Source of the DNA: an uncultured Spirochaetota bacterium
GTDB lineage: Bacteria; Spirochaetota; Spirochaetia; SZUA-6; Fen-1364
Direction: 5' to 3'
DNA: 64,000 bases
Assembly: GCA_963753085.1 (NCBI GenBank)
Contig: CAVWBF010000020.1
Span: forward strand, 66,999-130,998
Both the position numbers and the translations under genes were made by a program. Positions 23,887 through 40,176 of the stretch are shown here, piece after piece (position 1 is the stretch's first letter; each line of letters begins with the position of its first letter). The notes below the pieces were generated by a model. It saw nothing but the letters and a program-made list of their open reading frames with translations. It did not search any database and was not told the origin of the DNA.

Positions 23887-24279
23887 TCATGCGTTGCGTT
23901 CTCCGTCGTATGTGCGGAAAATGCCGCGCTCCCTGCAGACGTTCCGCGCGCTTGCTATCAGGGAGGGGATGCTGACCCCCACGGGGCAGTAGCATCGCAT
24001 GCACAGCACGCACCTGTTCCACACGAGGTCGCTGATGGTCCGGTATTCAGACTCGGACAGCTTTCCCTTTTTCCGAAAGATCCTGCCGATGGAGTTGATT
24101 GCCTTGTACGACGGGGAATAGCGCGGATCCCCTCCGCTCCCCTGGAACTTGAAGCAGCTCTCCGCGCAGAGCGCGCAGTGGGCGCACGCCTGCAGGGACA
24201 GCTTGATCATATCCCTGTTGCGGTCCAGAACCCGGGTGATGCGGTGCATCACCATGGCCCCCGCGGTGTCATCCTTCAT
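23887..24279 (-). CDS. Small 2x[4Fe-4S] ferredoxin-type protein (HdrC / DsrK-N-terminal-like)
   Basis: 130 aa with CAHCALCAESC and CVLCMRCYCP cluster motifs. No CCG domain. ATG 24279 overlaps the stop of the upstream cytochrome b gene (ATGA). Confidence 0.7.
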   Translation of the reverse strand: MKDDTAGAMVMHRITRVLDRNRDMIKLSLQACAHCALCAESCFKFQGSGGDPRYSPSYKAINSIGRIFRKKGKLSESEYRTISDLVWNRCVLCMRCYCPVGVSIPSLIASARNVCRERGIFRTYDGERNA

Positions 24280-25208
24280 TTCGCCCTCCCCCAGGCCCGC
24301 GCGGCAGGCCGCAGCGCGTATTCGCCCGACACGAAGAATCGGGCGAAGAGAAGGAAGGGCATGTGGCCGAGCTTCGTGAACGGGATGGCGACGAACAAGG
24401 CGTCCGCGGAAATCACGTGGACCACCATCAGCCAGTGGGAGGTCGTCACATGGTGGTACGCCATGAGGCCCGTCACAAACGGGGCCAGAACGAGCAGAAG
24501 GACACCGTAGTCGTACACGGTGGAAAGCACCCTGACGCGCGGAAAAAACATGCGGCGCAGGAGAAAGAATCCTCCGGCTGCGATCAGGACGATGGTGAGC
24601 CAGTCAGCGAGCGGGCCCGGGATGGCGGGCAGACTCGCGTGGAATCTCCTGGCCAGGAGGATGTTGTGGGCCGGCAAAAGGAGCGGAACAAGGAAAAGGA
24701 GAATGTGGAAAACAAGGCTCACCGTCCTCATGACGGGGTGAGTCCCGCTTTTCGGTCGGGCCGGCCCGGGGAACAGGGACGCCAGGACGGGCCTGTTCTC
24801 AGGCTGGAGACCCAGGACAGCTTCCGGGCGATACTTTCCGCGTCCGGGGGCCATTCGGGTAAACCTCCTGAACTGACGGAAGCGGTAGAGGAGACCCAGC
24901 AGGGCCAGGAGAAGGGAAATGCGAAGCGCAGGTCCCTGCGCTATGTCGTAGACGGTTGTCGACAGGTTCGCTCGGGCCCCCGGCGTTCGGGAAGCGGAGC
25001 TTGTGGCAGCCGCGGTGGAGCGGGATGCGGAGGTGGCGGCGTCAGCCGAGGGCTTCGAAACTGACGGGGTGGCGGCCCCGGAGGTGCGGGAGGCTGAGCT
25101 CGTTGCGTCAGTCTCCTGCGACCACGCGTGCCCGGCGATCATGAGAATGACAATGACCATTCCGGCAAGGACCCGGAAGCCGCCCCTCGAGAATCCGAAC
25201 ACTCCCAT
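24276..25208 (-). CDS. NarI/DsrM/HdrE-type dihaem cytochrome b membrane protein with an N-terminal Ser/Thr/Ala-rich extension
   Basis: ATG 25208 with GGAAGGTGA upstream. Five predicted TM helices after the extension. His pairs FHILLF..PAHN and HVISADALFVAIPFTKLGH (18-residue spacing), plus the PFTKLxH motif shared with NarI. Confidence 0.7.
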   Translation of the reverse strand: MGVFGFSRGGFRVLAGMVIVILMIAGHAWSQETDATSSASRTSGAATPSVSKPSADAATSASRSTAAATSSASRTPGARANLSTTVYDIAQGPALRISLLLALLGLLYRFRQFRRFTRMAPGRGKYRPEAVLGLQPENRPVLASLFPGPARPKSGTHPVMRTVSLVFHILLFLVPLLLPAHNILLARRFHASLPAIPGPLADWLTIVLIAAGGFFLLRRMFFPRVRVLSTVYDYGVLLLVLAPFVTGLMAYHHVTTSHWLMVVHVISADALFVAIPFTKLGHMPFLLFARFFVSGEYALRPAARAWGRAK

Positions 25209-25215
25209 CAGCGGC

Positions 25216-25854
25216 TCACCTTCCTGCGATTGCCTTGAGCTTTTCAGCCGCCGTTGCGGCATCCGGCGCGTACCCGTCCGCCCCGATCTCACGCGCGTAC
25301 TGGTCGGTGAGCGGCGCTCCTCCCACCATGAACTGGACCTTGTTCCGCAGCCCCTCTTTCTGGAAACGATCGATGACGTCCTTCATCCCTGTCATCGTGG
25401 TCGTCAGGAGGGCGGACATCCCGACCGCCTTGGCGTCAGGATTGTCCTTGAGGCCCTGGAGGAACTTGTCCGCGGAGACGTCGATGCCCAGGTCGACGAC
25501 CTCCAGACCTGCTCCCTGCGCCATCATCTTCACGAGGTTCTTGCCGATGTCGTGAAGGTCTCCCTTGACCGTGCCCAGGAGCATCTTGCCGATGGGCTTG
25601 ACCCCTGCCTTCACCAGCTCGGGACGCAGGATTTCCATGCTCTGGTTCATGGCGCGCGCGGCAATCAGGACCTCCGGAATGTAGACCTCGTTCGCCTTGA
25701 ACCGCTTGCCGATCTTCTCCATGCCGTCCAGGAGGCCCTTGTTGAGAATATCGCCGGCGCGCTTCTTCTCAGCCAGGAGCGAGGAGGTCAGCTCCTTCGC
25801 CCTGTTCGCGTTGCCCTTCTGGATGGACTCGGAAAGCTCCTCGAAAGTTGCCAT
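25216..25854 (-). CDS. Corrinoid (cobalamin-binding) protein of methyltransferase systems
   Basis: 212 aa. N-terminal helical cap plus Rossmann B12 domain with GDLHDIGKN (DxHxxG), SALLTTT (SxL) and GGA. SD CAGGAGGAA upstream. Confidence 0.88.
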   Translation of the reverse strand: MATFEELSESIQKGNANRAKELTSSLLAEKKRAGDILNKGLLDGMEKIGKRFKANEVYIPEVLIAARAMNQSMEILRPELVKAGVKPIGKMLLGTVKGDLHDIGKNLVKMMAQGAGLEVVDLGIDVSADKFLQGLKDNPDAKAVGMSALLTTTMTGMKDVIDRFQKEGLRNKVQFMVGGAPLTDQYAREIGADGYAPDAATAAEKLKAIAGR

Positions 25855-26002: not shown

Positions 26003-26770
26003 TCAGCGCTTTCGAGCCTTTGCCGCCGCCTTCTTTTTGGCCGCCGGCCTGGCAGTCCTCCTGCGGGCAGTGCCGTTGACGCGCTTGGCTCCCGCTCGCC
26101 GGGGCTTCAGCGCCGTTCGCACTGGCTGGACCTTCTTCAGTTTCTTCTCCAGGGACGCCGAGTAGTCCTCGAGGTGCAAGAGGAGGTTGAATACGTCCTC
26201 CTGCGCCTTCTCATAAAGCTCACGGGCTTTGGCTGGGTTGGTTCGGTTCAGCTCCTGGACGTCATGAACGGCGATCACCGTGCCGTCTTCACCGGCAACG
26301 ACATCCACGGGCCTGCTCTTCTGGTGAAACACGGCGGCGGAGGCGAATACGCTCCCGGGCCGATACTTCATGCCGGGGTGCCCGTCGTTGTGCGCAGAGC
26401 CGCGGATGACCTCACAGGCAAGCCCCTCCGCTTCGCGCTTGCGCAGGACAACATCACCTCGTTGGAATGTCTCCGCGGGACCAGCCGCTTGCGCTGCAGG
26501 AGCAAAAACGGAGCTTGCCGTTAATCCGCCGATGCGCTCGTACGAGCTTCCGATCTTGAAGATCTCGGGATTCGCGAGCTGGTGCTTCCTTCCGTAAATC
26601 GCGTCATGCTTAATCTGGGCGAGATTTTTCGCGATTTTTATCGACTCCGAGTCGATGTCCGCCTCGGTCACCCCCATGAGGTTTTCCTTGACGACGAACT
26701 CCGATAAGAAGGGACAGCCGGGCTCCCGGCATCTGATCTTGTAGACAGCTTCCTTGAGCTTGAACGACAT
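26003..26770 (-). CDS. Hypothetical protein with a cNMP-binding-like beta-barrel core and a Lys/Arg/Ala-rich histone-H1-like tail
   Basis: SD AGGAGGAA upstream of ATG 26770. The central FQRGDVVLRKREAEGLACEVIRGSA...VVAGEDGTVIAVHDV resembles a cNMP-binding fold. The tail reads RRRTARPAAKKKAAAKARKR. Confidence 0.55.
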   Translation of the reverse strand: MSFKLKEAVYKIRCREPGCPFLSEFVVKENLMGVTEADIDSESIKIAKNLAQIKHDAIYGRKHQLANPEIFKIGSSYERIGGLTASSVFAPAAQAAGPAETFQRGDVVLRKREAEGLACEVIRGSAHNDGHPGMKYRPGSVFASAAVFHQKSRPVDVVAGEDGTVIAVHDVQELNRTNPAKARELYEKAQEDVFNLLLHLEDYSASLEKKLKKVQPVRTALKPRRAGAKRVNGTARRRTARPAAKKKAAAKARKR

Positions 26771-27045
26771 GACATTCCTCCTGTCGGTTCGACAACCGTA
26801 ATTCTATATTCCCAACGCCCCATTTTCCACCCGAAATCGCGAAAAAGCAAGGTAACCGCGGTGTTACCCGTTCCGAAAGCTCGATTGCTTCCAGGGCAAC
26901 GCGTTCGCGCCGGGCAGGTATACTCACGTGCACGGTGGCCGCGTCGATGGCCCGGGAAGGGCGGGGGAGACTGTTCCCGGCGCGCTCCCGGGAGCCGACC
27001 CGTCCGCTTCAGAATGAAGACATACGCAGGGAGAGGGAGCAACCG

Positions 27046-27846
27046 GTGGACGCAGTCACCATCAGCAGCATTGCGCTCGGGATCGTTTCCATTTTCATCA
27101 GCGGGTTCGCCATCTGGCTGAGCCTGCAGTTCAACGACCGCTCGGCAAGGGCCCTGGAATCCATCTCCCATCTCGCCACCGAGATCCGCTCCATGACGGA
27201 CATCAGCCTGGCGCACCAGAAGGATTTTTCCACCAAGATGCTGGACTCCCTGATCGAGATGAACGCGTATGGCCGCCCTTTCACCTATCCCGAGTCTCAC
27301 ACCGCCAAATCGAGCAGGCGTCTGGAGGAGCAGGCGCAGTCCCTGGCGGACACGGTGGAGCAGGCGGTGAAGAAGATTGCCGGCACGCATGCGGCGCCGC
27401 CCGTCGATGTCTCCCTCGAGGTCCAGGCGGTGAAGGAAGCGATGCGAAAGCTCGTGGAGCCGTCGAACGACGGGGGCTCCGCGTCGGTGCTGCCGGAGGA
27501 GCAGCGCAACGCGTTGAAATCATTCATGACCCATCCGGCCCACTACGTGCTCCTCACCGCAATTCTCCTGTCAGAGGCTCACTCGATTGACGACCTGAAC
27601 AGGATGGCGGACCGCTATCACGTCCCGGCAGGCTACCAGGGAGGCATCCTCCACCTGCTGGACAAGGGACTGCTCAAGGGATCACCGCAGAGCTTTTCCA
27701 TCTCCCCGGAGCTGATTGCCCCGCTCACCTCCTGGGTGGAGAAGAATATTTCCACGCTGACGAACCTGATGAGCTATTACGCTGATTCGCGGCGGTCTTT
27801 CCGCCAGTCGCCCGAGATGGAAAGAGCGAACGAGCTTCTCTTCTAG
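27046..27846 (+). CDS. Membrane-anchored hypothetical protein with a possible C-terminal winged-helix-like region
   Basis: GTG 27046 lies 6 nt after AGGGAG, followed immediately by a TM helix (ISSIALGIVSIFISGFAIWLSL). The track start at 26935 is an alternative. The C-terminus (YVLLTAILLSEAHSIDDLNRMADRY..LLDKGLLKG) looks wHTH-like. Confidence 0.5.
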   Translation: MDAVTISSIALGIVSIFISGFAIWLSLQFNDRSARALESISHLATEIRSMTDISLAHQKDFSTKMLDSLIEMNAYGRPFTYPESHTAKSSRRLEEQAQSLADTVEQAVKKIAGTHAAPPVDVSLEVQAVKEAMRKLVEPSNDGGSASVLPEEQRNALKSFMTHPAHYVLLTAILLSEAHSIDDLNRMADRYHVPAGYQGGILHLLDKGLLKGSPQSFSISPELIAPLTSWVEKNISTLTNLMSYYADSRRSFRQSPEMERANELLF

Positions 27847-27850
27847 CTTC

Positions 27851-28849
27851 TTACTGGGCGCGGATCATGTAGGGAATCATGCCGTGGATGGGCCGTGCGG
27901 ATGGGTCCGCGTTGAACCTCCAGAGCCGCACGGCTGCACTCACCGCCGCGTCCACCTCGTTGTATCCCGAAGAGCCCTCCACGTTGACATCCGAAAGGAA
28001 GCCATCGGGAGTCAGGGTAAAGGTGACCAGGACGGTGAGGGTAAGTCCTTCCTTGCTCACCCACGCCGGAATGCGAGGCTGCGGGGAGGAAAGGAGCTTC
28101 CGTGCCCTTCCAGCCTCCGGCTGGTCCCAACGAAAACGAAAATCACCCTGTCCTCCGCCAACGGCTCCGCCCCTTCCTTCCTGTCCACCACCGCCTTGCA
28201 GGGCGGTTCCTCCTTGCCCTCCGGCCAGCCTGCCCTGGGCCAGTGACTTGTCGAGCGACCCCAGGTCCAGGGAGCCCTTTGCGGGAGCCTGTCCACCGCC
28301 TTGCACGTAGACGCCGGCCGCGCGCGACGGGGCCGTTCCGCCTCCTCCTCCCTGGCTGGCGGAACCGGTGCTCGCCTGCGACTGGGTGCGTGAGGGCTTG
28401 AAGACCGGCTCCTGCACGGGCGTGGTTGCCGACTGCGTGAAGTTGGGTTGTCCACCCGTGGGTGATCCCGACGTCCTGAAGCTCGGCCCTGTCGGCCGCG
28501 ATTCGCTTTCCGTCTGTCCCTGGCGGGGCGTCGGGATGGTGAAGCTCTCTCCGGTGGATGCGTTCGGTGCCGCCGCGCGTGTCTGCGCCGGAAGCTGGGA
28601 CTGGGGCTGCCCCCGCAGGGCCGGGCCCGCCTGGGCCGGCTCGGCCGTCAGGGCCATGCCGCCAAGGGTCCCAGGCGCGAGATCCACGCTCAGGGTGGTC
28701 AGCTGGAGTGGGGGCTGCGCAAGGCGGATGATCGCAAGAGCGGCGAAGAAGCAGACGTGGAGGAGCACGGCCGCCAGGAGCGCAATCAGCAATCGCCGCG
28801 AATCGCTGTCGCTCTGCCCGCCATTCATCGTCTGCACTGCTGCACTCAT
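27851..28849 (-). CDS. tonB: TonB/TolA-like energy transducer
   Basis: N-terminal TM anchor (LLIALLAAVLLHVCFFAALAII), long Pro/Gln/Gly-rich spacer, and a C-terminal TonB_C-like domain (TVLVTFTLTPDGFLSDVNVEGSSGYNEVDAAVSAAVRLWRF). Confidence 0.8.
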   Translation of the reverse strand: MSAAVQTMNGGQSDSDSRRLLIALLAAVLLHVCFFAALAIIRLAQPPLQLTTLSVDLAPGTLGGMALTAEPAQAGPALRGQPQSQLPAQTRAAAPNASTGESFTIPTPRQGQTESESRPTGPSFRTSGSPTGGQPNFTQSATTPVQEPVFKPSRTQSQASTGSASQGGGGGTAPSRAAGVYVQGGGQAPAKGSLDLGSLDKSLAQGRLAGGQGGTALQGGGGQEGRGGAVGGGQGDFRFRWDQPEAGRARKLLSSPQPRIPAWVSKEGLTLTVLVTFTLTPDGFLSDVNVEGSSGYNEVDAAVSAAVRLWRFNADPSARPIHGMIPYMIRAQ

Positions 28850-28859
28850 GGGAGTCCCC

Positions 28860-30491
28860 CTAAAAGCTCAACCGGACGCTCGCCACGACGCGGAAGCCCG
28901 GCTCCACGTACGGATACAGGCTGGGACCGTATCGATGAAGCCCGCTCGACAACGGCCACAGGAGGTCGTAGAGATCGAGGTGAAGCTGGGCCGGCTCGGA
29001 AAGCCGAACGAACCCGCCGATATCCAGCTCAGGAAGCTGTACCGTCGGAGGCAGGCCCGTGAGCTGGGTTGCGCTGACCTGGCCGCCGTAGGCTCCGGTA
29101 GGCTCCATGGCCAGTGCCTCCACGGTTATCTCATCAGCAGGGGCAAAGGTCGACCTGTCGATGAACTCCCTCTTCCAGCCTGCATCCAGCGTCACTCCCG
29201 GCGTAATGGTCCATCGCAGGCCGGCGTCTCCTGTCAGCCGGGTAGCCGATGCCTGGGAGACGGTGTAGAGCCCCTGGTAATCCGGCGAAGGCGAGCCCCC
29301 GGTGAAAAAAGTCGATGTCGGCATTGCCGCGCTGCTCATGAAAGAAGCCTTCACGCGGACGCTCAAGTCTCCCGTAAGGGCAAGCTGAAAAGCTCCATCC
29401 GCAAACCACCCCCGGTCATCTACCAGGCCCACAGGTACAAGGTACGGATTGAGCGCCAGGATGTCACCCTGGTCGTAAGGGACAACCCGGTAGCCAAAGG
29501 ATGCATCGAGGGTGAGGGCTGAAAAAGGAGAACCGGTGGCGTGGATGGAAAAGGGGAGCAGGCTTCCCAGCTGGGAGCTCCAGAACCATGCCGCCGAGCC
29601 TTCCAGCAGGAGCGATCCCGGAAAGCTCAGGCTCAACGAGACTCCCGTGCGCAGGCGCTGCACCTGGTCGTCCCCTATGACGAGCATATGCGCCAGGCGG
29701 TAATCGTAGTCCCCGGAGACTCCGACGGTCAGTATCCCCGTGCGCGCCTCCGCGCCGAGGTGCGTCGTGCCCTTGTACTCGGCCGCCTGGCCGGGGGTGC
29801 TTGAGGCCAGTGTCAACGAATCCGTGACGCCGCGAACGGAGCCGTCCACCGTGAGCCAGTCGAGCGGCTGGACCCGCAGCGTGCCAGTTCCGTCGAGGTC
29901 TCGTCCGAGTCGATAAATGTACGGCGCCTGCTGCTGCAGGCCGTTCTCCTTTTCCGAGTAGCTTCCCTGGAAACCGCCATCGAAGGGCCCGAGCTTGCCC
30001 GAGATGTTGCCGGCAATCGTATCATCACGGGTGTCGTACCCGGAGCCCTGCGTCTGCCCCGAGATGCCGTCAGCGGTGTCATGGGAGAAGGAAAGGCCGG
30101 AGGTGGAATTGCCGCCGATAGTGGTCACGTTCAGGTTCCCCACGACCCTGTTCTGCGACCCGGCGCCCAGCGTGGCCTGCGTGGCAAGCGGGCGCTGGGG
30201 CGTTGCGGTCCCGCCAAGGGGATCAGACCCTTCCACCCCTAGCGTCCGCGCGGGCGCCTGGACAGCAAGCTCGGGTGAGGCAGGGAGGAGGACCGCGGCC
30301 CCCGCGAGGTTCACCGGGGGTGTGGGGGGGAGCATGGCCTGGATGTTTTCCACGCTGAGGTCCTGGATGTCCAGGGTCACCTGCGGCAGCACGAGCTCGG
30401 GCTGGGCGGGCTGGGCCGGCTGGTCTGCAGCCTCCAGGGCGGCAGGCGCCAGGAGGATCAGGAAAAGGGAGAGAAAGCGCAGCTTGCTCAT
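28860..30491 (-). CDS. Outer-membrane beta-barrel protein, unknown family
   Basis: Signal peptide ends ALEAAD. Alternating beta-strand pattern; C-terminal VVASVRLSF (terminal Phe). ATG 30491 overlaps the TPR gene stop (ATGA). I recognise no plug domain or TonB box. Confidence 0.65.
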   Translation of the reverse strand: MSKLRFLSLFLILLAPAALEAADQPAQPAQPELVLPQVTLDIQDLSVENIQAMLPPTPPVNLAGAAVLLPASPELAVQAPARTLGVEGSDPLGGTATPQRPLATQATLGAGSQNRVVGNLNVTTIGGNSTSGLSFSHDTADGISGQTQGSGYDTRDDTIAGNISGKLGPFDGGFQGSYSEKENGLQQQAPYIYRLGRDLDGTGTLRVQPLDWLTVDGSVRGVTDSLTLASSTPGQAAEYKGTTHLGAEARTGILTVGVSGDYDYRLAHMLVIGDDQVQRLRTGVSLSLSFPGSLLLEGSAAWFWSSQLGSLLPFSIHATGSPFSALTLDASFGYRVVPYDQGDILALNPYLVPVGLVDDRGWFADGAFQLALTGDLSVRVKASFMSSAAMPTSTFFTGGSPSPDYQGLYTVSQASATRLTGDAGLRWTITPGVTLDAGWKREFIDRSTFAPADEITVEALAMEPTGAYGGQVSATQLTGLPPTVQLPELDIGGFVRLSEPAQLHLDLYDLLWPLSSGLHRYGPSLYPYVEPGFRVVASVRLSF

Positions 30492-33379
30492 TTCCCTGCC
30501 TCCTGCAGCTTGCGCGCCCTGGCTGTCCAGGGCGACGATGGGAAGTTGTCCGACATCTTTTTCACAATGACCTGGACCTGGTCCGGGCGCTGGCCGAGCT
30601 TCATCATCTCCGCGGCCCGGAAGAGGGCGGACGCGGAAAAGTCCGCATCCGAGGCCCCAGCCTCCGCCGCCGCAACAAACCGCTTCGCCGCTTCCAGGAG
30701 GTCGCTCTTTCTATAGAAATATTCCCCTTCCAGGTACACGGCCCGGGCGCTCGTCATGCCGCTTCCCTGGCTCGCAACCTGCTGGAGCATCTGGTAACCC
30801 TGGTCGACCTTTTTCTCCCCGCTGTAGATATACAGCTTCGCAAGGTCGGTGGTCGCTTCCAGCTTTGCGGTGCCGCTTGAATGCGAGATGCGCGTCGTGA
30901 GGTCAGCTTCAGTGGAATCCAGTCCCTGGATCTGGTAGCGGAGTTTTTCAGCAGTAATGTCCGCTTTTGCAAGCCGCGCCTCGTCGGGATAGTCGGATAT
31001 GAACCGCGAGTACAGGTCGAGCGCGCGCCTGAGGTCGTTGGCGGCCTGGTAGACCTCCGCGGCCTTTCGCAGGGACGCGGCGCGGAACGAGCTGGACTTG
31101 TAGGTGGTTGCCAGCTGCTCCCAGAGAAGCGCCGCATCGAAGCGCGCGCCGGTTGCGTAGGAAGACTCTCCTCCCCAGTAGAGGGCCGCGTCGTACAGCC
31201 TCCCGGCGGGATATTTCCTCCTGTAATCGGTGAACGCTGACGCTGCGGCCACGTAGTTTCCCTGGTTGTAGAAGGTCTCAGCCACCTGGTAGCTTGCAGA
31301 TTCGGCCAGCGCGCTGTTCGGGAACTGGGTCATGAGGTTCCGGTAGGCATCGATTGCCCCGGAAGGCGACCCGGAAAGAGCCTGTACGCCGGCGTAGTCG
31401 AACAGGGCGTCGTCGGCAAAGGGAGACTGGGGTGACGAGCTGATGATGTGCTGGAGCGCCGTTGAGGCATCCGCCAGCTTCTTCGCGCCGATCAGGCTCT
31501 TGGCGTAGAGGTAGAAGTCCTTCTCCGAGGAGCTGCGGTCTCCTTCGGCCTCCGCGGCCTGGTAGAAGTCCGCCGATGCCTTGTCGAAGTCCCCAAGATT
31601 GAAGTGGCTCCATCCCGCGAGGAACAGGATCTTGGGGGCAAGAACGTGGCCGGGATAGGCAGTGATGAGACCGTCGAGGATCTGTGCGCTGCGCTTGAAG
31701 TCGTCCGTCTTCGAATACGCCCACCCCAGGTAGTAGCCGGAATAGGGCAGGATGACTCCGAGATCCCTCGCCTTGGCCGTCGAGGCATCTATTTTTTCCA
31801 GTGTTGCCGCGCCCGCGGCGTAGTCCTTCATGGCGATCAGGCTGAGCCCGCGGAGGTAGATTGCCGCTGTCCCGACCTGGGGATTCTTCGAGACGAGGTC
31901 AGGGCTCGAAGCCATGAGGGAAGCAGTTCCCTCCTCGACCGATTTGTAGTCCTTTGTCAGAAACTCCATCTCCAGCAGGTCGAGGTTCGCTTCTACGTCG
32001 AGGGGAAGGATTCCGATGTATTCCTTGAGCGCCGCAGCCGCTCCTGCGAAGTCCCCGCGCTTCTTCAGGATCTGCCCCTGAAGGCGAAGGAAATCCGCGC
32101 GGGCCCCCGGCGTGTCTGTGCTCTTCTGAAAGCGCGCCACTGTGGCAGCCGCCTGGTCTGTCTTGCCCTGGCGAAGCTGCACGTCTGCCAGGAGCGCAGC
32201 GGCCTGAGGCGCACGGGTGGAGGCGGGGTATGTTTCCAGGAACCGCGAGAAGATGCTTTCCGCAAGGGCCAGCTCCCCCGAGTCACGGGCAAGCCCCGCA
32301 AGGGCGAGCATTCCCGACTCGGAGGACGCGCCCGGCTGGCTGGTGTAGTCCTGCAGCAACGCCCGGGCACCGGCAGCGTCCTTCTGATCCTGGAGGATCT
32401 TTGCCAGGTAAATGGGGACCGTGCTGTCCACGGGGAAGGACTTCCTGAGGGCCCACGCCCTCTGGAGGTACAGCGATGCCGCGTCCAGGTTTCCTTTCTT
32501 GTAGTTTTCCACTCCCAGCCCGGCCCAGACATCCATCATGACCTGGGGAGTCGCCGAGAAATGGCTCTCCATCTCTCTGGCGATGGCTTCCATGCGGGGG
32601 AGGTCGGCCTGGGTCTCCGCGGCGCTAAACAGCCTGCGATACGAGGCAAGGGAGATGTCCGGCCGCGCGTCGCGGAGGTTCGTGTACGCGGTGATTGCGT
32701 CCCCCTGGCGCCCGCTTTCCCAGAGGCCTTCCGCCCTGTTGAAAAGGAACTCCTGTCGAAGGTCACCAGGCAGGGAGGCAGGGTCCGTCTCTGAAGACAG
32801 CTGCTCCAGGGCATCCCAGGATTTTTCCTTCAAGAGCAGGGAGGAGAGAAGGACGAGGGAAGGAGCGCGCAGGTCCGAGCCGGGCCATGCCCGCACGATC
32901 TGGCGCGCCGCGTCCACGGCTTCAGGCAGTTTCTGGAGGGCTTCGAGGTCGAGAGACTTGCACAGAAGCGCCCGGGGAACCAGCTCGGGATCCTTTCCGG
33001 TGGACAGGTACTCGTTGAGGGAGACGAGGCTGGGGGTGAACCTCGACAGCTTGTAGAGAGAGAGCCCCTGCCACAAGGGCACCGCCTCGATGTAGCGTGT
33101 CCAGCGGTAGCGCAAGGCGACGTCGGAGAGAATGGAGGACGCCTGCTGGTAATTGCCCAGCTGGTACAGGCACACGGCGCGACGGTACTGGACATCGGCG
33201 GCAAGGTCCGAGGAAGGGTATAATTGAAGGAACTCGTCGTACCCCACCAGGGCGGCAGTGTAGTTCTTGTCGAGGAACCTGCTCTCCGCCTCCGTGAAAA
33301 GCTCGCCGGAGGCCGGTGCAGCCCAGAGGGACACCGAGCCTGCCAGCAGGACCAGAACGGCAAGTGAGCGCATCCTCAT
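30488..33379 (-). CDS. Large secreted TPR-repeat protein (963 aa; CpoB/YbgF-like repeats)
   Basis: Start taken at ATG 33379 (MRMRSLAVLVLLAGSVSLWA signal peptide); 33373 and 33394 are alternatives. The 1295-aa track ORF runs into the divergent gene and is rejected. TPR-like helix pairs run throughout (e.g. YQLGNYQQASS, YNQGNYVAAASAFTDYRRKYP). Confidence 0.8.
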   Translation of the reverse strand: MRMRSLAVLVLLAGSVSLWAAPASGELFTEAESRFLDKNYTAALVGYDEFLQLYPSSDLAADVQYRRAVCLYQLGNYQQASSILSDVALRYRWTRYIEAVPLWQGLSLYKLSRFTPSLVSLNEYLSTGKDPELVPRALLCKSLDLEALQKLPEAVDAARQIVRAWPGSDLRAPSLVLLSSLLLKEKSWDALEQLSSETDPASLPGDLRQEFLFNRAEGLWESGRQGDAITAYTNLRDARPDISLASYRRLFSAAETQADLPRMEAIAREMESHFSATPQVMMDVWAGLGVENYKKGNLDAASLYLQRAWALRKSFPVDSTVPIYLAKILQDQKDAAGARALLQDYTSQPGASSESGMLALAGLARDSGELALAESIFSRFLETYPASTRAPQAAALLADVQLRQGKTDQAAATVARFQKSTDTPGARADFLRLQGQILKKRGDFAGAAAALKEYIGILPLDVEANLDLLEMEFLTKDYKSVEEGTASLMASSPDLVSKNPQVGTAAIYLRGLSLIAMKDYAAGAATLEKIDASTAKARDLGVILPYSGYYLGWAYSKTDDFKRSAQILDGLITAYPGHVLAPKILFLAGWSHFNLGDFDKASADFYQAAEAEGDRSSSEKDFYLYAKSLIGAKKLADASTALQHIISSSPQSPFADDALFDYAGVQALSGSPSGAIDAYRNLMTQFPNSALAESASYQVAETFYNQGNYVAAASAFTDYRRKYPAGRLYDAALYWGGESSYATGARFDAALLWEQLATTYKSSSFRAASLRKAAEVYQAANDLRRALDLYSRFISDYPDEARLAKADITAEKLRYQIQGLDSTEADLTTRISHSSGTAKLEATTDLAKLYIYSGEKKVDQGYQMLQQVASQGSGMTSARAVYLEGEYFYRKSDLLEAAKRFVAAAEAGASDADFSASALFRAAEMMKLGQRPDQVQVIVKKMSDNFPSSPWTARARKLQEAGK

Positions 33380-33745
33380 GGAAACGTATCGCATACCATG
33401 GAGTTCCTCAAGAGCCGAGCGTCCCGGGGAAGGCGACGAAGCTGTCACGTTTTTTGCCATACGGTGCAAGAGTACTACGAATGCCCGTGCGGTGGAGTCA
33501 TATGCGCGAGGAAAATGGGGTCGAATTTCCATGACACATTCCTTTTCCGCGCCCGCGCGGGTCGTGCGGCACCCGGGCGTGTCGTTGAGATTCGACACGA
33601 GAATCATCTTTCGGATTACTGACCCGGATTGTCGCTGATTCGTAGAGTAGCACTGGAGCAGTATTGTGGGAGTAGCAGGTCGAAACGCCGGCGTTGTTGA
33701 AAATGCCGCGCCATCGTTATACAGTATTCTCGACGGGAGGGCCCC

Positions 33746-36700
33746 ATGAAAAACCAGGTTCGCCGTTTCATCGTCGTCGCATTGTTTGCACTTGCCGCCG
33801 GGGCCGTCCATGGAGAGAGCGGCTTTCTGGATTTCTACTCCCCGCAGTTCCTCGGAGGGATGGGCGGGACGGCCAACCTGAACTCGCCGCAGGGGACGGT
33901 CCTCAACCCCGCCGTTGCCGGAGGCAAGCAGAGGGTGACCCTGGACCTCAGTTACCTGGCCCTGACCGGGGTGAGCCAGAACCCGGTTGCCCTGGACGGG
34001 AACTTCTTCAACCTCGGCGTGACCATTCCGACAAACGTCGGCGTGTTTTCCACCACCGGGCGTTTCACCAATGCGACCTTCTCCGGGGTTCCGCCGGCGC
34101 CCAACTGGGGGGCAATGGGCGGGCTGACCTTCGCATTCTCCAAGGATGTGTTCCCTGACTTGTACGTGGGCGCCGGCCTGGGAGGGGAGTTCGGCAGCGA
34201 CTGGGGCCTGGGCCTCGACCTCGGGTTCCTCCACATCCCCGGCGACCTCGGTCTCCTGAAAGACTTCCGCTGGGGCGCGGCAATCCGCAACATAACGTTC
34301 AAAGGCTACACTTCCTCCAACGCGCCCGGCTCTCTCGCGAACCCGCCCGTGTTCACCCCGGCAGTCGGGGCGCACTTCTCCCTTATCAGGACGGCTCCCT
34401 TCGTGCTCTCCCTGGACCCCGACATCAGCTTCCCGTCGTTCCAGGACCTGCAGGCCACAATCGGCGCGGACATGGTGATTGCCAATTTCCTGATCCTCAG
34501 CGGCTCCTACATATACGACCTGCGCCAGGCGGCGGGGATCGAGCCGTCGCGCTCCCTTCCGTTCACGTTCGGGGTTTCTTTCAAGATCACGACGAACATA
34601 CAGCAGAACATCGGCTCCCTGAACGCCACCGAGCAGGGTTGGAACAGGAGCGAGGTGACCAGCACGGCTGTCGCAGCGCCGCTTGAGAACGGCGTCTGGG
34701 CGTTCGGCCTCGGGGCAAACGTGCCCCTTGGCGCAATAGAGAAGAATCCTCCCGCCATCGGCCTTGATACGAACGGTGAGAAGTACGTCTCCCCGACTCT
34801 TGTAGGCGGAAAGGTGGACCTCGTCCTTCCTCTCTCAATCACCTCCAAGAGGTATATCAAGGGATACAAGCTCGTGATCCAGGATTCCTCGGGAACACCC
34901 GTGCGGACCATCCAGAACAAGGAGGACCGGCCCGAGAACAGGGACCTCGGCAACCTCGTGAAGCGTCTGTTCTACGTGAAGTCGGGGATCCCTATTCCTT
35001 CCAGCATCAGGTGGGACGGGACCTCTGACAAGGGGACCGTCGTTCCTGACGGCACCTACCGGTACTTCGTGGAAGCCTGGGACGACAACGGCAACGTCGG
35101 CAGGACCCCGCTGGGGACCACCATAGTCAAGACGGTGCCTCCGCAGATATCCGTGTCCGCCCAGTACCTGATCTTCTCTCCCACGGGGGAAGGGACCAAG
35201 GCGGCGCTTCCCGTGCACCAGACCGGCTCCAAGGAAGACCTGTGGAGCGGTGTGATCAAGGACGCTGCCGGAGGGACAGTGCGGACGTTCACCTGGAAGG
35301 ATTCTGCGCCGCCTGACTTCGAATGGGACGGGAAGAACGACAAGGGCGTCCTGGCCCCTGACGGCGTGTACAGCTACCACGTGGCCGCCACGGACAGGGC
35401 TCAGAACTCCAACGCTGCGGAACTGGACAACATCATCATCAACACCCAGGCCACCCCCGTCCAGCTCTCCATCGATTACGCGTATTTCTCCCCGGGGACA
35501 GAAAGTCCGAAGAAGGCAGTCACTTTCGCGCTCGGAGTGCCCGTCAAGACGGGTATCGAGAATTGGAGCCTCGACGTCTCGGACGCAAGCGGGGCCGTAC
35601 AGAGGACTTTCTCCGGGAAGATGAGCATCCCCGCGAGCGTCGAATGGGACGGAAAGGATGACAAGGGGAAGGTGCTGCCGGACGGCGGCTACAAGGCGAA
35701 GCTCGCCATCATGTACGTGAACGGACACAACCCGACCGCTGATTCACCTCTTATCACCATCAAGACGACCCCGCCCACCGCCGCGGTCTCCGCTGAATAC
35801 GAGGTTTTCTCCCCGACCGGAGACAGTGAAAGGAACACGGTCACGATCCACCAGGACACCTCTGAGGAGCTGTTCTGGACAGGGACCTTCAAGGACGACA
35901 CGGGCAAGGACGTCAGGACCGTGGTGTGGCGCGGGACCGCGGACCGCGCGTTCCAGTGGGACGGCCGCACGGACGACGGCGCGCTCCTCCCTGACGGCGC
36001 TTACACCTACGAGCTTTCCTCCACGGACCGGGCAGGCAACACCGGCTCCTCGAAGCTCATCACGCTGCGGATCGACACCCAGAAGAAGCCTGTCCGCCTC
36101 TCCACGGATCTTGCCTATTTCTCACCCTTCGGCGGCGGATCCAAGACGAAGCTCAAGATCATCCCGGCGCTCGCCGTGACCACGGGCGTGGAGTCGTTCG
36201 TCGTGCGCGTGAAGAACGCCAAGGGGGACGTCATCCGGACCTTCAAGGGAAGCAACCGGCCTCCCGAGGAGCTGTCTTGGGCGGGAATCGATGACGCGGG
36301 CAACAGGGCGCCGGACGGGCAGTACTCGGCGGAGCTTCAGGTTACCTACTCCAACGGCACGCACCCCACGGCGCAGAGCAATCCGTTCTTCATCGACAAT
36401 CATTTCCCGCAGGTCGACGTAAGCGCGGATGTGACGCTGTTCTCTCCGGACGGCACGAGCCGCCAGCAGTCCGTCCTCATCAAGCAGTCATCAAGCGATG
36501 AGGACCTCTGGGAAGGGGAGCTGCACAACGCCAAGAACGAGCGCGTCCGCGCATGGTTCTGGAAGGGCAAGGCGGTGGACTTCTCCTGGGACGGCAAGGA
36601 TGACAACGGCAACGTCGTTCCGGACGGCAGCTATACGTACGTCGTGAAGTCACAGACGAAAGCCGGCAACCAGACGGTCAAGGAGCTGCGGGGAATTGTC

Positions 36701-37777
36701 GTGGACACGAGGGCCACGCCCGTCTTCCTGACTGCGTCGGCAACGGGATTCTCTCCCACTCCGACCGGCGTGCCGAACACGATCGGTTTCAGCCCGATCG
36801 TGGGCCTGAAGGACGGGATCAGGTCGTGGAAGCTGTCCATGGTGAGCGCAGGCGGTACGTCCGTGAAGGACTTCAGCGGGCAGGCTCCCGTGCCGTCGTC
36901 CCTCACGTGGGACGGCAAGGACGAAGCAGGGGCAACCGCGCCGGACGGCCTGTACACGGCCGATCTCCAGGTGGACTACTTCAAGGGGAATCTCGCTGAG
37001 ACAAAGACGCCGGAGTTCGCTGTGAACGCAACCGGGCCAAAGGTCGATATCGCGCTCGGCGGCGTCCCGTTCTCCCCGGACAACGACGGCTACAACGATG
37101 AGCTCACCATCGGCCTGAAGGTGACGGATCCCAGCCCCATCGACAGCTGGAACATCCAGATCATGGACCCGGAGAACCACCCGTTTGCATCGTTCTCAGG
37201 GAAGGGCACTCCATCGGACAAGATCATCTGGAACGGCCTGTCAGATACCGGCGAGCTGGTGCAGTCCGCGGAGGACTACCCGCTGACGTTCACGATCAAG
37301 GACACGCTGGGAAATACAGCCACGTACAACAAGACCATCCCCGTCGACATCCTCGTTGTAAAGGACGGCAATAATCTCAAGATCAGGATCCCGAGCATCA
37401 CGTTCCAGGCCAACACCGCGGATTTCACGCACGTGGATCCGGATAAGGCTGCGAAGAACATCGCCACCATCGCCCGGCTATCGGAGATCTTCAAGAAGTA
37501 CAACCAGTACAAGATCACGATCCAGGGCCATGCGAACCTCGTGAACTTCGACAACCCGGTCGCGGCGAAGAAGGAGCAGGAGCAGGAGTTGATCCCCCTG
37601 TCGAAAGCGCGGGCTGAGGCCATCAAGCAGGCGCTCGTAGCCCAGGGAATCGATACAGCGCGCATTTCCACCGTTGGAATCGGAGGCGCGGAGCCGGTGG
37701 TGCCGTTCTCCGACCTCGACAACCGCTGGAAGAACCGCCGTGTGGAGTTTATCCTTGTCCGCAACGAAGGCAGCTGA
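33746..37777 (+). CDS. Giant OmpA-family envelope protein: N-terminal beta-barrel, 8 FlgD-Ig-like domains, C-terminal OmpA peptidoglycan-binding domain
   Basis: GGGAGG lies 5 nt before ATG 33746, with a signal peptide. aa 24-340 are barrel-like with GGMGGTANL..VLNPAVAG (PorP/SprF-like motif). Eight repeats carry W[DNA]G.xDxGxxxPDGxY. The C-terminus reads ITFQANTADF..LSKARAEAIKQAL..NRWKNRRVEFILV (OmpA_C). Confidence 0.85.
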   Translation: MKNQVRRFIVVALFALAAGAVHGESGFLDFYSPQFLGGMGGTANLNSPQGTVLNPAVAGGKQRVTLDLSYLALTGVSQNPVALDGNFFNLGVTIPTNVGVFSTTGRFTNATFSGVPPAPNWGAMGGLTFAFSKDVFPDLYVGAGLGGEFGSDWGLGLDLGFLHIPGDLGLLKDFRWGAAIRNITFKGYTSSNAPGSLANPPVFTPAVGAHFSLIRTAPFVLSLDPDISFPSFQDLQATIGADMVIANFLILSGSYIYDLRQAAGIEPSRSLPFTFGVSFKITTNIQQNIGSLNATEQGWNRSEVTSTAVAAPLENGVWAFGLGANVPLGAIEKNPPAIGLDTNGEKYVSPTLVGGKVDLVLPLSITSKRYIKGYKLVIQDSSGTPVRTIQNKEDRPENRDLGNLVKRLFYVKSGIPIPSSIRWDGTSDKGTVVPDGTYRYFVEAWDDNGNVGRTPLGTTIVKTVPPQISVSAQYLIFSPTGEGTKAALPVHQTGSKEDLWSGVIKDAAGGTVRTFTWKDSAPPDFEWDGKNDKGVLAPDGVYSYHVAATDRAQNSNAAELDNIIINTQATPVQLSIDYAYFSPGTESPKKAVTFALGVPVKTGIENWSLDVSDASGAVQRTFSGKMSIPASVEWDGKDDKGKVLPDGGYKAKLAIMYVNGHNPTADSPLITIKTTPPTAAVSAEYEVFSPTGDSERNTVTIHQDTSEELFWTGTFKDDTGKDVRTVVWRGTADRAFQWDGRTDDGALLPDGAYTYELSSTDRAGNTGSSKLITLRIDTQKKPVRLSTDLAYFSPFGGGSKTKLKIIPALAVTTGVESFVVRVKNAKGDVIRTFKGSNRPPEELSWAGIDDAGNRAPDGQYSAELQVTYSNGTHPTAQSNPFFIDNHFPQVDVSADVTLFSPDGTSRQQSVLIKQSSSDEDLWEGELHNAKNERVRAWFWKGKAVDFSWDGKDDNGNVVPDGSYTYVVKSQTKAGNQTVKELRGIVVDTRATPVFLTASATGFSPTPTGVPNTIGFSPIVGLKDGIRSWKLSMVSAGGTSVKDFSGQAPVPSSLTWDGKDEAGATAPDGLYTADLQVDYFKGNLAETKTPEFAVNATGPKVDIALGGVPFSPDNDGYNDELTIGLKVTDPSPIDSWNIQIMDPENHPFASFSGKGTPSDKIIWNGLSDTGELVQSAEDYPLTFTIKDTLGNTATYNKTIPVDILVVKDGNNLKIRIPSITFQANTADFTHVDPDKAAKNIATIARLSEIFKKYNQYKITIQGHANLVNFDNPVAAKKEQEQELIPLSKARAEAIKQALVAQGIDTARISTVGIGGAEPVVPFSDLDNRWKNRRVEFILVRNEGS
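35144..37042 (+). repeat. Three tandem ~633-nt (~211-codon) units, each encoding an A-type plus a B-type Ig-like domain
   Basis: Landmarks recur with a 210-211-aa period. VSAxY is at aa 470/681/892, WDG(A) at 527/738/948 and W[DA]G(B) at 634/845/1055. The units are diverged at DNA level (protein-level repeat only). Confidence 0.8.
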
Positions 37778-37803
37778 GTAAGGTCCCGAGGGAGGGGTAG
37801 ACA

Positions 37804-38424
37804 ATGTTTGCTGGAAAAACACTGTGGCAGATCTTTGCATCCGGCGGCGCAACGATGTACGTGCTCCTGTTCTGCTCCCTGCTTTCGCTTGCCGTCATCA
37901 TAGACCGGCTCTGGACGTACTGGAGCATGATGCGGGTGAACCGGGCGGCGTTCATGCGCCGGATCCAGGGGATGCTGGAACGCAAGGACAGGGAAGGGGC
38001 GGTGGAGGTTTGCCGTGAGACGCGGGCCCCGTTTGCGCGCGTGGCGCTGGCGGGCCTGGAGCTCAGGTCACGGGACGAAAAGCTCCTGGCGAGCACGCTG
38101 GAGCGCGCCGTCACTTTCCAGGCCTCGCGCCTGGAGAGGCTCACGAGCATCGTCGGCACTATTGGAAACACGGCGGTGTACATCGGTCTCTTCGGGACCG
38201 TCCTCGGGATCATCCGGGCCTTTCGCGACATTTCCGCCATGGGAACCGGCGGGATGGCAGTAGTCATTGGAGGAGTGGCCGAGGCGCTCATCACGACCGC
38301 CACGGGACTGGCCGTGGCGGTCCCGTCGGTCATCGCGTACAACTACTTCGTGAGGCGCATCGACGAGTTCGTGAATGACATGGAGCTGTGCGCTTCCGAG
38401 ATGACGGACCTCCTGACCAGGTAA
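37804..38424 (+). CDS. exbB: MotA/TolQ/ExbB-family proton channel
   Basis: 206 aa, 3 TM helices, with the family pattern GTIGNTAVYIGLFGTVLGIIRAF..ALITTATGLAVAVP. Confidence 0.88.
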   Translation: MFAGKTLWQIFASGGATMYVLLFCSLLSLAVIIDRLWTYWSMMRVNRAAFMRRIQGMLERKDREGAVEVCRETRAPFARVALAGLELRSRDEKLLASTLERAVTFQASRLERLTSIVGTIGNTAVYIGLFGTVLGIIRAFRDISAMGTGGMAVVIGGVAEALITTATGLAVAVPSVIAYNYFVRRIDEFVNDMELCASEMTDLLTR

Positions 38425-38425
38425 G

Positions 38426-38845
38426 ATGCGCACACGAAACTCGCGGCACAACGGGCTGATGGCGGGGATCAACATCACTCCGTTCACGGACGTGGTGCTC
38501 GTCCTGCTGGTCATTTTCATGATCGCCACGCCCCTGATCATCCAGTCAGGGATGCGGGTGAACCTTCCTGCCACCAGCACGGCGGAGGCTCAACCGGAAA
38601 AGAGCATCGTGATCACCATCGACTCTTCGGGCGCGCTCTACCTGGGCAAGGAGCGCGTCATGCTGGATGAGCTTCGTCAGAAGCTCACCGGCATGCTCGC
38701 GCGGGCGCCTGGTTCCCCCGTCGTCGTGATGGGAGACCGGGGGATCCGCTACGACGTTGTCATCCGCGTGCTGGACATCGCGAAGTCAAGCGGCGCGCGA
38801 AGGATGTCTCTGGGAGTCGAGGTGCGGCGGGACCTCAACCAGTAG
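38426..38845 (+). CDS. exbD: ExbD/TolR-family protein
   Basis: 139 aa. GINITPFTDVVLVLLVIFMI TM segment with the conserved Asp, followed by a periplasmic domain. Confidence 0.88.
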   Translation: MRTRNSRHNGLMAGINITPFTDVVLVLLVIFMIATPLIIQSGMRVNLPATSTAEAQPEKSIVITIDSSGALYLGKERVMLDELRQKLTGMLARAPGSPVVVMGDRGIRYDVVIRVLDIAKSSGARRMSLGVEVRRDLNQ

Positions 38846-38862: not shown

Positions 38863-40176
38863 TTACTTTTCGGGAATCGTGTCGGACGGCACTCGCAGCT
38901 CGTGGGGATCGAGCCCGATCTGGTTTTTTCTGGGCGCGGCCGGTTCGGGAGCCGGCGCCTTCCTGCGGCCGGTGGCGTTTTCTTTCAGCTCCTGGCTTCC
39001 CAGGTGGTCACGAGTGCGGAAATACCTGGCCCTCGACTCCAGCTGGCTGGGGTTCTCGATCGTCAACTGGCGGAACTGGAAACTGAGGTTTGCGTCATCC
39101 GTGAGGAGCTCGGCGAGCTTCTGCTGCTGGTCCGCGGGAACCCTCGCCATGCCCAGGATCTCTCCAATGCCCAGCGGGAGCGTCACGGGCTTCGTGCTGG
39201 AAAGGGATATCCTCTCCTCCAGAAGCTTGTTCTCCAGCAGGACGTACGAGCGCGTCATGGGGTTCGTGTAGAAGCTTGACTGCAGCCGTATGAAGGTGAA
39301 CCACAGCCGCTGGCTGATGGCAGTCAGGATCCTGGCAATCGTCACCGGGGATTTTTCAAACAGGGCAGGAAGGGATTCGCGGGCAACGGGGAGCAGCGCC
39401 GTCTCACCGATTGCCACGGCGGTGGCGTTGCGCGGCTTGCTGGAGACGATGGAAAGCTCGCCGAATATGTCGCCTTCCCTGAGGATTGACAGGAGCATCT
39501 CTTCCGGCGGAGTGATCTTGAGGATCTCCACCTTGCCGGACTTCACGATGTACAGCTCTTTTCCCGGCTCGTTCTCGCAGAACACCATCTGAGCGTCGCT
39601 GTACAGGCGGGCCAGACCGCGCTGCGTCGGTGTCTGGGTCTTCATCCCTTTTGCCCGCAGGTCGGTCACGATCTTCTGCGCGGCCCGCGAATTGGGCACC
39701 GAAGGGTAGAGCTCAAGGTGCATTTTCAGCGCATACAACGCGTGGGCCTCACGACCCACCTTCATGAAATACATCCCCAGCTCGAAGAGCCGCTGCTCGT
39801 CCGTCTGCTCCGCCTTGTCCGACGGCACGGCCACCATGTCGTCATACGCGCGAAGCTCGTCGGCGAAGTAGGAGATGACCCGGGTGGCGAGCTCGGGATT
39901 CGACTGCACGGACTCCAGGAACCGGTCGCGTCCCAGCACGGCGCAGATGCAATCCGTGCGGGCCACGACGGTCTCCATGCGAGGGCGCCGGCAGAGACAC
40001 GAGGTGAAGCCGAAGATGTCCCCGGGGCCGAGGGTCGTGCGGAATCTCTTCAGCTCGGGGAAACCCTCGAGCTCGACCTCTCCCTTTTCGATGACGAAGA
40101 CGTCCCCGCTCTCCTCCTCGGACTCGAGGTAGATGCGCGCGCCCTTCTTGTAGCTCTTCTTCGTCGATTCGCTCAC
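38863..40176 (-). CDS. Protein with two cyclic-nucleotide-binding domains
   Basis: GTG start at 40176. Domain 1 reads GDVFVIEKGEVELE..GPGDIFGF. Domain 2 reads GKELYIVKSGKVEI..EGDIFGELSIVSSKPRNATAVA (FGE...RxA phosphate-binding cassette). Confidence 0.8.
   Translation of the reverse strand: MSESTKKSYKKGARIYLESEEESGDVFVIEKGEVELEGFPELKRFRTTLGPGDIFGFTSCLCRRPRMETVVARTDCICAVLGRDRFLESVQSNPELATRVISYFADELRAYDDMVAVPSDKAEQTDEQRLFELGMYFMKVGREAHALYALKMHLELYPSVPNSRAAQKIVTDLRAKGMKTQTPTQRGLARLYSDAQMVFCENEPGKELYIVKSGKVEILKITPPEEMLLSILREGDIFGELSIVSSKPRNATAVAIGETALLPVARESLPALFEKSPVTIARILTAISQRLWFTFIRLQSSFYTNPMTRSYVLLENKLLEERISLSSTKPVTLPLGIGEILGMARVPADQQQKLAELLTDDANLSFQFRQLTIENPSQLESRARYFRTRDHLGSQELKENATGRRKAPAPEPAAPRKNQIGLDPHELRVPSDTIPEK

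Follow-up and report, generated by a model that had tools for sequence, protein, structure and literature searches.

We examined a 64,000-nucleotide stretch of contig CAVWBF010000020.1 (positions 66,999 to 130,998; assembly GCA_963753085.1) from an uncultured Spirochaetota bacterium, hereafter the window, which carries a divergent six-gene locus. One arm encodes a large tetratricopeptide repeat (TPR) protein, a beta-barrel protein and a TonB-type transducer; the other encodes a giant OmpA-domain protein and two motor proteins of the ExbB/TolQ and ExbD/TolR types. All evidence presented here is in silico, with protein domains called using Pfam and NCBIfam, and every carrier that we found of the conserved gene cassette described below is uncultured. 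The features of the locus are as follows (aa, amino acids).

27851-28849, minus strand: TonB-type transducer gene (332 aa)
28860-30491, minus strand: barrel gene (543 aa)
30324-30410, minus strand: codons of a conserved tail motif, barrel residues ~28-56
30488-33379, minus strand: TPR gene, first gene of the cassette (963 aa from the ATG at 33379; 968 aa from an alternative ATG at 33394)
33380-33745, no strand: divergent spacer of 366 bp, separating the minus-strand arm from the plus-strand arm
33746-37777, plus strand: giant OmpA-domain gene (1343 aa)
37804-38424, plus strand: ExbB/TolQ-type gene (206 aa)
38426-38845, plus strand: ExbD/TolR-type gene (139 aa)

The six-gene layout, coordinates, domains, ATGA overlap and 366-bp spacer listed by a first-pass annotation of this DNA were all confirmed by the open reading frames (ORFs), their translations and the Pfam/NCBIfam assignments. 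The TPR and barrel genes share four nucleotides, ATGA at 30488-30491, in which the stop codon of the former meets the start codon of the latter; this suggests translational coupling. Gaps between the remaining genes are short, namely 10 nt from barrel to tonB, 26 nt from the giant OmpA gene to exbB and 1 nt from exbB to exbD, and a terminator-like hairpin looked for in the 26-nt gap was not found. The same annotation had seen no TolB, small Pal or plug at the locus, and a domain scan agreed, with zero matches to TolB/PD40, Pal or Plug in the six locus proteins and 30 other window ORFs (some 16 likely window ORFs lay outside the scan). No TolB/PD40 match came from seven more flanking ORFs either, of which six belong to related loci and one to the window. 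The flanks of the locus encode unrelated functions, including methylene-tetrahydrofolate reductase, B12-binding proteins, cNMP-binding proteins, a Mur ligase and YicC, and 20 further window ORFs that were scanned were metabolic or without annotation.

The six window proteins were mapped onto 45 loci of the barrel family from genomes and metagenomes, the named ones all being Spirochaetota. The TPR gene lay directly upstream of the barrel gene in 39/39 loci in which that DNA was present, and three layouts were distinguished.

Layout A: TPR-barrel-ExbB-ExbD-TonB on one strand; 19 loci, barrel ~27-33 % identical to that of the window
Layout B: TPR-barrel-TonB; 8 loci, barrel ~40-44 % identical
Layout C: ExbD-ExbB-OmpA divergent from TPR-barrel-TonB; the window and loci L002, L003, L004, L006 and L007, barrel 62-73 % identical

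Layout A genes overlap or nearly abut (abutting in L010, for example), and a giant OmpA gene was seen in none of these 19 loci, as far as their contigs extend. In six of the eight layout B loci, where ~10 kb was available to either side, neither ExbBD genes nor a giant OmpA gene occurred within that distance. Layout C recurred in four independent metagenome-assembled genomes (MAGs; L002, L004, L006 and L007), and L003 agreed with it until its contig ended inside the OmpA gene. A midpoint-rooted neighbour-joining tree of the barrel placed layout A on both sides of the root, with B nested within A and C forming a single clade inside B; from these positions we infer that layout A is ancestral and the window's layout derived. 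A sixth conserved gene was sought in the cassette loci and none was found. Two proteins of ~430 aa, whose genes precede the TPR gene in separate clades, had been candidates and were rejected as unrelated, one being a PALP enzyme and the other having no domain.

These data point to a conserved unit of five genes (TPR, barrel, ExbB, ExbD and TonB), restricted to Spirochaetota as far as sampled. The linkage of a motor, a TPR component and a non-canonical barrel noted in the first-pass annotation was thereby upheld, with the TPR-barrel pair present wherever the upstream DNA was visible and ExbB-ExbD-TonB following it in 19 loci. Its six-gene synteny fared less well; it held in four relatives, and in L003 to the contig end, but gave way in the wider collection to five genes without OmpA. 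The cassette was seen once per locus, flanked by variable housekeeping genes, with no ABC transporters, binding proteins or Fur/ECF regulators alongside. Literature searches turned up no account of this cassette, nor of any TonB-linked barrel without a plug in spirochaetes. As a separate observation, several loci other than the window's carry a large gene directly after tonB (L001, 12743-15694; L013, 4096-6936; also L008, L009, L019, L023 and L039), the product of which (946-1866 aa) combines apolipoprotein-like repeats with a DUF6115/DUF2802 domain at its C-terminus.

The 543-aa barrel protein comprises a signal peptide, an N-terminal tail and 22 beta-strands, and ends in VRLSF with a C-terminal Phe. 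An AlphaFold2 model built on 22 homologues placed the 22 strands over residues 102-542 with pLDDT of ~85, whilst residues 11-98 scored below 50; the extracellular loops in the model were short, at 3-23 residues. When the model was compared with the PDB using Foldseek, the top 50 matches were all TonB-dependent transporters, the best being BtuB (E 7.5e-17, TM ~0.6), followed by PfeA, FpvA, FrpB and OprC. This 22-strand transporter fold had been missed by the first-pass annotation, which had proposed a structural check for a plug; in that check the barrel did not prove to be an ordinary plug-containing transporter. None of 44 members of the barrel-family alignment matched the Plug family (PF07715) at E up to 1, and a single member of the 44 matched the TonB_dep_Rec barrel family (PF00593), at E 0.27. 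The 543-aa protein itself had no Pfam match, no Pfam or NCBIfam family covers the barrel, and a barrel-family profile searched against PDB sequences found no transporter and no significant match. As modelled, the barrel is a transporter fold without a plug domain and a member of no annotated family. By the definition of the TonB-dependent transporter family it is outside that family, given that it has neither the plug nor the sequence-family match. Since a 22-strand barrel without a plug could not stay open, it would have to be occluded by its tail, by the TPR protein or by cargo, or else serve as an anchor.

An exhaustive profile search recovered 430 representatives at 50 % identity, nearly all of 520-570 aa; among 30 clusters sampled, the seven with an organism name were all hypothetical proteins from MAGs of Spirochaetia, Spirochaetales or Spirochaetaceae. 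A word-indexed homologue search with a wide barrel profile yielded no protein beyond the known 22. Named homologues also place the source of the window among uncultured Spirochaetia.

The signal peptide of the barrel protein is followed by a tail of ~80 residues (22-101) that leads up to strand 1 and is acidic, proline-rich and predicted to be disordered (pLDDT 30-40). It contains the conserved motif listed above, with family consensus PxEPxIVLPxVxLEIEDLSVExVxAxLP. Information content here reaches 2.3-2.5 bits per position, compared with ~1.5-1.7 over most of the barrel, which puts the motif among the most strongly conserved parts of the family. This motif is a candidate TonB-box-like or TPR-binding epitope.

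The 963-aa partner of the barrel matched many TPR families, the CpoB/YbgF model TIGR02795 scoring 182 bits against a cutoff of 90 in six stretches, and its only matches among PDB sequences were CpoB/YbgF TPR domains, in line with the comparison to CpoB/YbgF drawn in the first-pass annotation. It also passed the cutoff of the BamD subfamily model, which reflects a common type of TPR module and not the overall architecture. The protein contains about six CpoB/YbgF- and BamD-like modules, and in size and architecture is unlike CpoB. Type I (non-lipoprotein) signal peptides and the lack of a consistent lipobox across the family indicate that it is soluble and periplasmic.

The 332-aa transducer has a single transmembrane segment (residues 17-46) and a G/Q/P/S/T-rich linker. 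Its TonB_C domain (37 bits; 44 bits with TIGR01352, cutoff 27) aligns to the C-terminal domain of E. coli TonB. Alignment of 18 cassette TonB proteins revealed an invariant His in the transmembrane helix, a well-conserved C-terminal domain and, right after the helix, a conserved short strand, GP(I/V)xV(T/E)L, which matches the 'motor box' strand described for TonB and TolA. The 206-aa protein has a MotA_ExbB domain (110 bits) and the Glu/Thr pattern of transmembrane helix 3; the TolQ model scored 121 bits against a cutoff of 221 and the ExbB model 93 bits, also below its cutoff. The 139-aa protein has an ExbD domain (97 bits) with the transmembrane Asp in PFTDVVLVLL, and fell below the cutoffs of both the TolR (97 bits, cutoff 127) and ExbD (83 bits) models. 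All the hallmarks of a Ton motor (MotA_ExbB, ExbD, TonB_C, the TonB transmembrane His and the ExbD transmembrane Asp) were therefore present, and from their sequences the motor and transducer look functional. The window ExbB scored 92-124 bits against the ExbBs of layout A cassettes and 58-70 bits against solved proteins (TolQ 70, ExbB 64.5); being nearer to the former, it fits relocation of the cassette's own motor genes and not acquisition of another set.

The 1343-aa protein encoded in front of the motor genes carries a type I signal peptide without a lipobox, and comprises a putative barrel (residues ~60-330), an Ig-like region (~345-1190) and an OmpA_C-like domain (~1200-1340). FlgD_ig was matched in seven stretches, and a WDGxxDxG motif recurs eight times at ~105-aa spacing, from which eight Ig units can be counted. 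The N-terminal 345 aa were modelled as a 14-strand barrel with low confidence (pLDDT 59, pTM 0.60), the nearest folds being FadL, TodX and PorV. Both ends of a 14-strand barrel lie in the periplasm, and so, if the model is right, the eight Ig units and OmpA_C should be periplasmic and form a long tether. The closest named family was NF053608 (Lsa66), at 343 bits against a cutoff of 700; by this score the protein is a relative of Lsa66 and not an equivalog. Its OmpA_C domain (37346-37765) aligns with PA0833, YiaD and T. pallidum Tp0624, and the Pal model scored 34 bits against a cutoff of 125. In the canonical domain the Asp of GYTD contacts peptidoglycan; here GHAN stands in place of GYTD and is followed by a 17-residue insertion (Tp0624 has GHTA), so peptidoglycan binding may differ from the textbook mode.

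The first-pass annotation had made this protein the peptidoglycan-binding replacement part of the machine, and it is on this point that the comparative data disagreed with it. Its adjacency to the cassette is confined to the shallow clade of layout C, and the gene is missing within ~10 kb in the six full-flank layout B loci. In L011 and L012, homologues (~50 % identity over the N-terminal domain) adjoin mltG (yceG)-dnaG-rpoD with no motor genes nearby, which argues against the protein being a conserved cassette component. As judged from this distribution, the giant OmpA gene is a lineage-specific neighbour, recent in the window's clade; its product is most likely an independent Lsa66-type long tether from outer membrane to peptidoglycan, the gene having presumably become co-transcribed with the motor genes in this clade.

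In layout C the 366-bp spacer between the arms contains a conserved sigma-70-like promoter, TTGAAA-17-TACAGT (33697-33725), with a ribosome-binding site for the OmpA gene, as well as two invariant or nearly invariant blocks. The block TGTCGAATCTCAACGACA (33580-33597) is identical in 6/6 layout C loci, and TGTCATGGAAATTCGACCC (~33500-33536) in 5/6, with one substitution in L003; in the relatives the blocks lie at 6996-7062 (L002), 3150-3240 (L003), 6923-6990 (L004), 6904-6992 (L006) and 6989-7037 (L007), and they are absent from all other cassette loci. This conservation occurs despite the proteins of these loci being only 62-82 % identical. Both blocks contain local palindromes, and each is partly complementary to the other, with a spacer of variable length between them. 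An RNA element was considered and rejected, as the paired columns were all invariant, the single-sequence fold was unremarkable (z = -0.79) and Rfam had no match there; Rfam found two tRNAs only in the window. For the same reasons of invariance and fold, we read the blocks as operator-like DNA palindromes. The two arms are probably co-regulated in the layout C clade, which would be compatible with a functional link to OmpA and is no proof of one.

Taken together, we favour, with slightly better than even confidence, a reading in which the five genes form a dedicated Ton/Tol-type force-transduction module, with TonB pulling the tail of the barrel within a barrel-TPR complex and the giant OmpA protein not part of the core. 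ExbB and ExbD in the inner membrane would turn proton-motive force into movement of TonB, the C-terminal domain of which would capture the disordered N-terminal tail of the barrel by beta-strand addition, on the model of TonB with the TonB box and of TolA with the TolB N-terminus. The existence of a TPR-barrel complex is suggested by the invariant adjacency and ATGA coupling of the two genes. Pulling on the tail would change the state of this complex at the outer membrane, such that an occluded wide channel opens or tension is exerted on the membrane. The CpoB-like TPR protein, the variable housekeeping flanks, the absence of uptake genes and the reported lack of Pal favour a Tol-like role; the transporter fold of the barrel partner favours a channel role. 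In the window's lineage, exbBD would have left the operon and now stand behind the giant FadL-barrel/Ig×8/OmpA gene, divergent from TPR-barrel-tonB.

Several points weigh against this reading. The tail motif departs from the canonical TonB-box sequence, and the proposed tail-TonB and barrel-TPR contacts are drawn from position, conservation and analogy. The plug-less assignment derives from one AlphaFold2 model (22 sequences), composition and the missing Plug-family match. The dedication of the motor was judged from the loci, and other ExbBD-TonB sets, or ordinary transporters that this motor serves as well, may be encoded elsewhere in the genomes. Finally, with a shared and conserved control region, OmpA could have been recruited functionally in the window's clade.

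Comparison with known systems places the cassette near Ton and Tol. It resembles the Ton system in its MotA_ExbB/ExbD motor, in a transducer with the transmembrane His, motor-box strand and TonB_C domain, in an outer-membrane partner predicted to be a 22-strand barrel with BtuB, PfeA and FpvA as nearest solved folds, and in a conserved N-terminal periplasmic segment at the place of the TonB box. It differs in that the barrel has no plug, no receptor-barrel-family sequence match and a non-canonical tail motif, is obligatorily paired with a 960-aa TPR protein, and is encoded with the motor as a dedicated set. With Tol-Pal it shares a 5:2-type motor, a TolA/TonB-like transducer, CpoB-like TPR modules, a disordered N-terminal epitope resembling that of TolB and, in the window's lineage, an OmpA_C-domain protein encoded beside the motor genes. 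Unlike Tol-Pal, it has neither a TolB propeller nor a Pal lipoprotein and its partner is an integral barrel; the only OmpA_C found is on a 1343-aa non-lipoprotein that is no conserved companion of the system; at about four times the size of CpoB, the TPR protein holds about six modules; and the gene order is TPR-barrel-(exbB-exbD)-tonB in relatives, split and divergent in the window, versus tolQ-tolR-tolA-tolB-pal-cpoB. For want of TolB, Pal and this gene order, the cassette is not a member of Tol-Pal, and by sequence and analogy it would work most like a Ton/Tol-type force-transduction system.

More distant parallels exist. The Agl-Glt machinery of Myxococcus (and Nfs) brings together a motor of TolQR type, TonB-like and periplasmic TPR proteins, and outer-membrane barrels for a purpose other than nutrient uptake. 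Its part types are the same as those of the cassette by analogy only; there is no detectable homology beyond generic domains (the GltC model scored 18 bits against a cutoff of 450), and the gene set here is much smaller, with no cytoplasmic or adhesin components. The spirochaete flagellar collar contains large periplasmic solenoid/TPR proteins, FlcA (931 aa), FlcB, FlcD and FlcE, which scaffold the MotA/MotB 5:2 motor. These are analogous to the TPR protein in being large, periplasmic and spirochaete-specific, but they are flagellar-motor proteins linked neither to TonB nor to an outer-membrane barrel. The giant protein shares FlgD_ig repeats and OmpA_C with Leptospira Lsa66, and its OmpA_C aligns with that of Tp0624, both of these domains lacking the canonical Asp (GHAN in the giant protein and GHTA in Tp0624, versus GYTD); it differs from Lsa66 and Tp0624 in adding an N-terminal FadL/PorV-like barrel and eight Ig units, and in its place before exbBD. 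A recent survey of periplasmic force transducers described new motor-linked families, its main text including neither spirochaetes nor this cassette.

Among the alternatives, the one that we regard as possible, if tentatively, is a Tol-like envelope-stabilising cassette of five genes without OmpA, either a functional stand-in for Tol-Pal in Spirochaetota or related to the Tol-Pal ancestor, in which the TonB/TolA-like protein would tug an immobile barrel to achieve outer-membrane apposition, division constriction or lipid balance. Such a role would suit a cassette that occurs once per locus, is widespread (430 representatives at 50 % identity), has variable housekeeping flanks with no uptake genes and encodes a CpoB-like TPR protein, in a phylum where a survey found OmpA to be the only outer-membrane tether, i.e. 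no Pal. It would also accord with a published proposal that derives TolB from an ancestor linked to an outer-membrane protein, and Tol itself from a Ton paralogue. A mere anchor, however, has no need of a channel-type fold, the cassette encodes no peptidoglycan-binding domain, a link to cell division is without evidence, and the preference of the motor proteins for TolQ/TolR over ExbB/ExbD models is weak. A more speculative elaboration, which we hold to be rather doubtful, makes the cassette the Spirochaetota counterpart of Tol-Pal, possibly like a Ton-to-Tol intermediate. The transducer would pull the tail of a plug-less, transporter-derived barrel with a giant CpoB-like TPR scaffold, and so hold, constrict or balance, without Pal, Lpp or TolB, an outer membrane that houses periplasmic flagella, the window's clade being newly wired to an OmpA-type tether.

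The original proposal, that all six proteins form one proton-motive-force-driven Tol-Pal-like machine in which the giant OmpA protein replaces Pal and the TPR protein replaces CpoB, now appears unlikely. The linkage of motor, TPR and plug-less barrel on which it was built stood; the inclusion of OmpA in a six-part machine did not. It can draw on the layout kept in four relatives and in L003 to the contig end, the 26-nt distance of exbBD behind the OmpA gene, the invariant blocks in the common intergenic region, the CpoB-like TPR modules, TolQ/TolR models scoring slightly above ExbB/ExbD models, and reports that spirochaetes lack Pal and have tethers of OmpA type only. Yet the OmpA gene is missing near the barrel in the six full-flank layout B loci and the 19 layout A loci (to contig ends), the L011 and L012 homologues sit by mltG-dnaG-rpoD without motor genes, the layout is derived and phylogenetically shallow, OmpA_C has Asn instead of the canonical peptidoglycan-binding Asp, and there is no TolB. 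An ordinary nutrient-uptake TonB-dependent transporter, its plug highly reduced or supplied in trans and its TPR protein an accessory like TtpD of Vibrio TonB2 clusters, is quite unlikely: a 22-strand transporter fold does adjoin tonB-exbBD, and some TonB clusters are known to include TPR genes (TtpD2), but the Plug (0/44) and receptor-barrel (1/44 at E 0.27) searches, a tail of ~80 acidic, proline-rich residues with no globular domain, short extracellular loops (3-23 residues), the absence of cognate inner-membrane uptake genes nearby and a strict pairing with a 960-aa TPR protein unlike anything in described transporters all speak against it. We consider very unlikely a pore for polymer or protein export with a TPR scaffold (cf. 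AlgK-AlgE, BcsC, PgaA and Slam), in which the Ton genes serve gating or are linked by chance. TPR-plus-barrel pairing is a hallmark of such exporters, a weak TPR_Slam match was found (29 bits against a cutoff of 35) and a large substrate would suit a wide plug-less barrel; against this, the barrel has 22 strands and those exporters 14-18 (16-18 in the porins of the exopolysaccharide systems AlgK/AlgE, BcsC and PgaA), no synthase, glycosyltransferase or cargo gene is conserved alongside, and the linkage to Ton genes is far too consistent for chance. Anti-phage defence of the Zorya type (MotAB-like) was rejected, as PADLOC gave no match beyond a generic OmpA domain, and so was type IX secretion, for which matches to PorW/SprE, PorU and CHU_C were far below cutoff and explained by generic TPR and Ig repeats.

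Several features of the surrounding DNA are worth recording. A gap of ~1.1 kb (26771-27850) between tonB and the next minus-strand gene holds a 303-aa ORF (26935-27846, plus strand) that is GC-rich at third codon positions, contains one hydrophobic segment and matches nothing in Pfam; in L002 the equivalent gap measures just 117 bp, suggestive of a lineage-specific insertion in the window. Proteins with cNMP-binding domains flank both ends of the locus, one of 437 aa with two such domains (38863-40176, minus strand) and one of 255 aa at the tonB end (26003-26770, minus strand); both occupy the same positions in L002 and are possible regulators. Genes at 22213-25854, 45915-47099 and 56201-57541 encode a methylene-tetrahydrofolate reductase with a C-terminal partner domain, a B12-binding corrinoid protein and two URO-D/MtaA-like methyltransferases, a set around the locus that hints at corrinoid-dependent methyl-group (C1) metabolism. 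Adjoining a tRNA-Lys gene (18065-18137), a 739-aa protein with two peroxidase domains (18816-21035, minus strand) is probably a KatG-type catalase-peroxidase, of note since the spirochaete is presumably anaerobic.

Force is known to pass from the inner to the outer membrane in a few ways: through Ton, which opens plugged transporters; through Tol, by which TolB and Pal are moved; and through Agl-Glt, which drives gliding. Candidate vWA force transducers have also been proposed recently. A motor hard-wired across a phylum to a plug-less barrel of transporter fold and a giant TPR protein would extend this list, and the wide plug-less barrel raises the direct structural question of what occludes a 22-strand pore. 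For spirochaetes, whose outer membrane is loosely tethered and in which Pal is reported lacking, the cassette would provide a concrete candidate for outer-membrane management.

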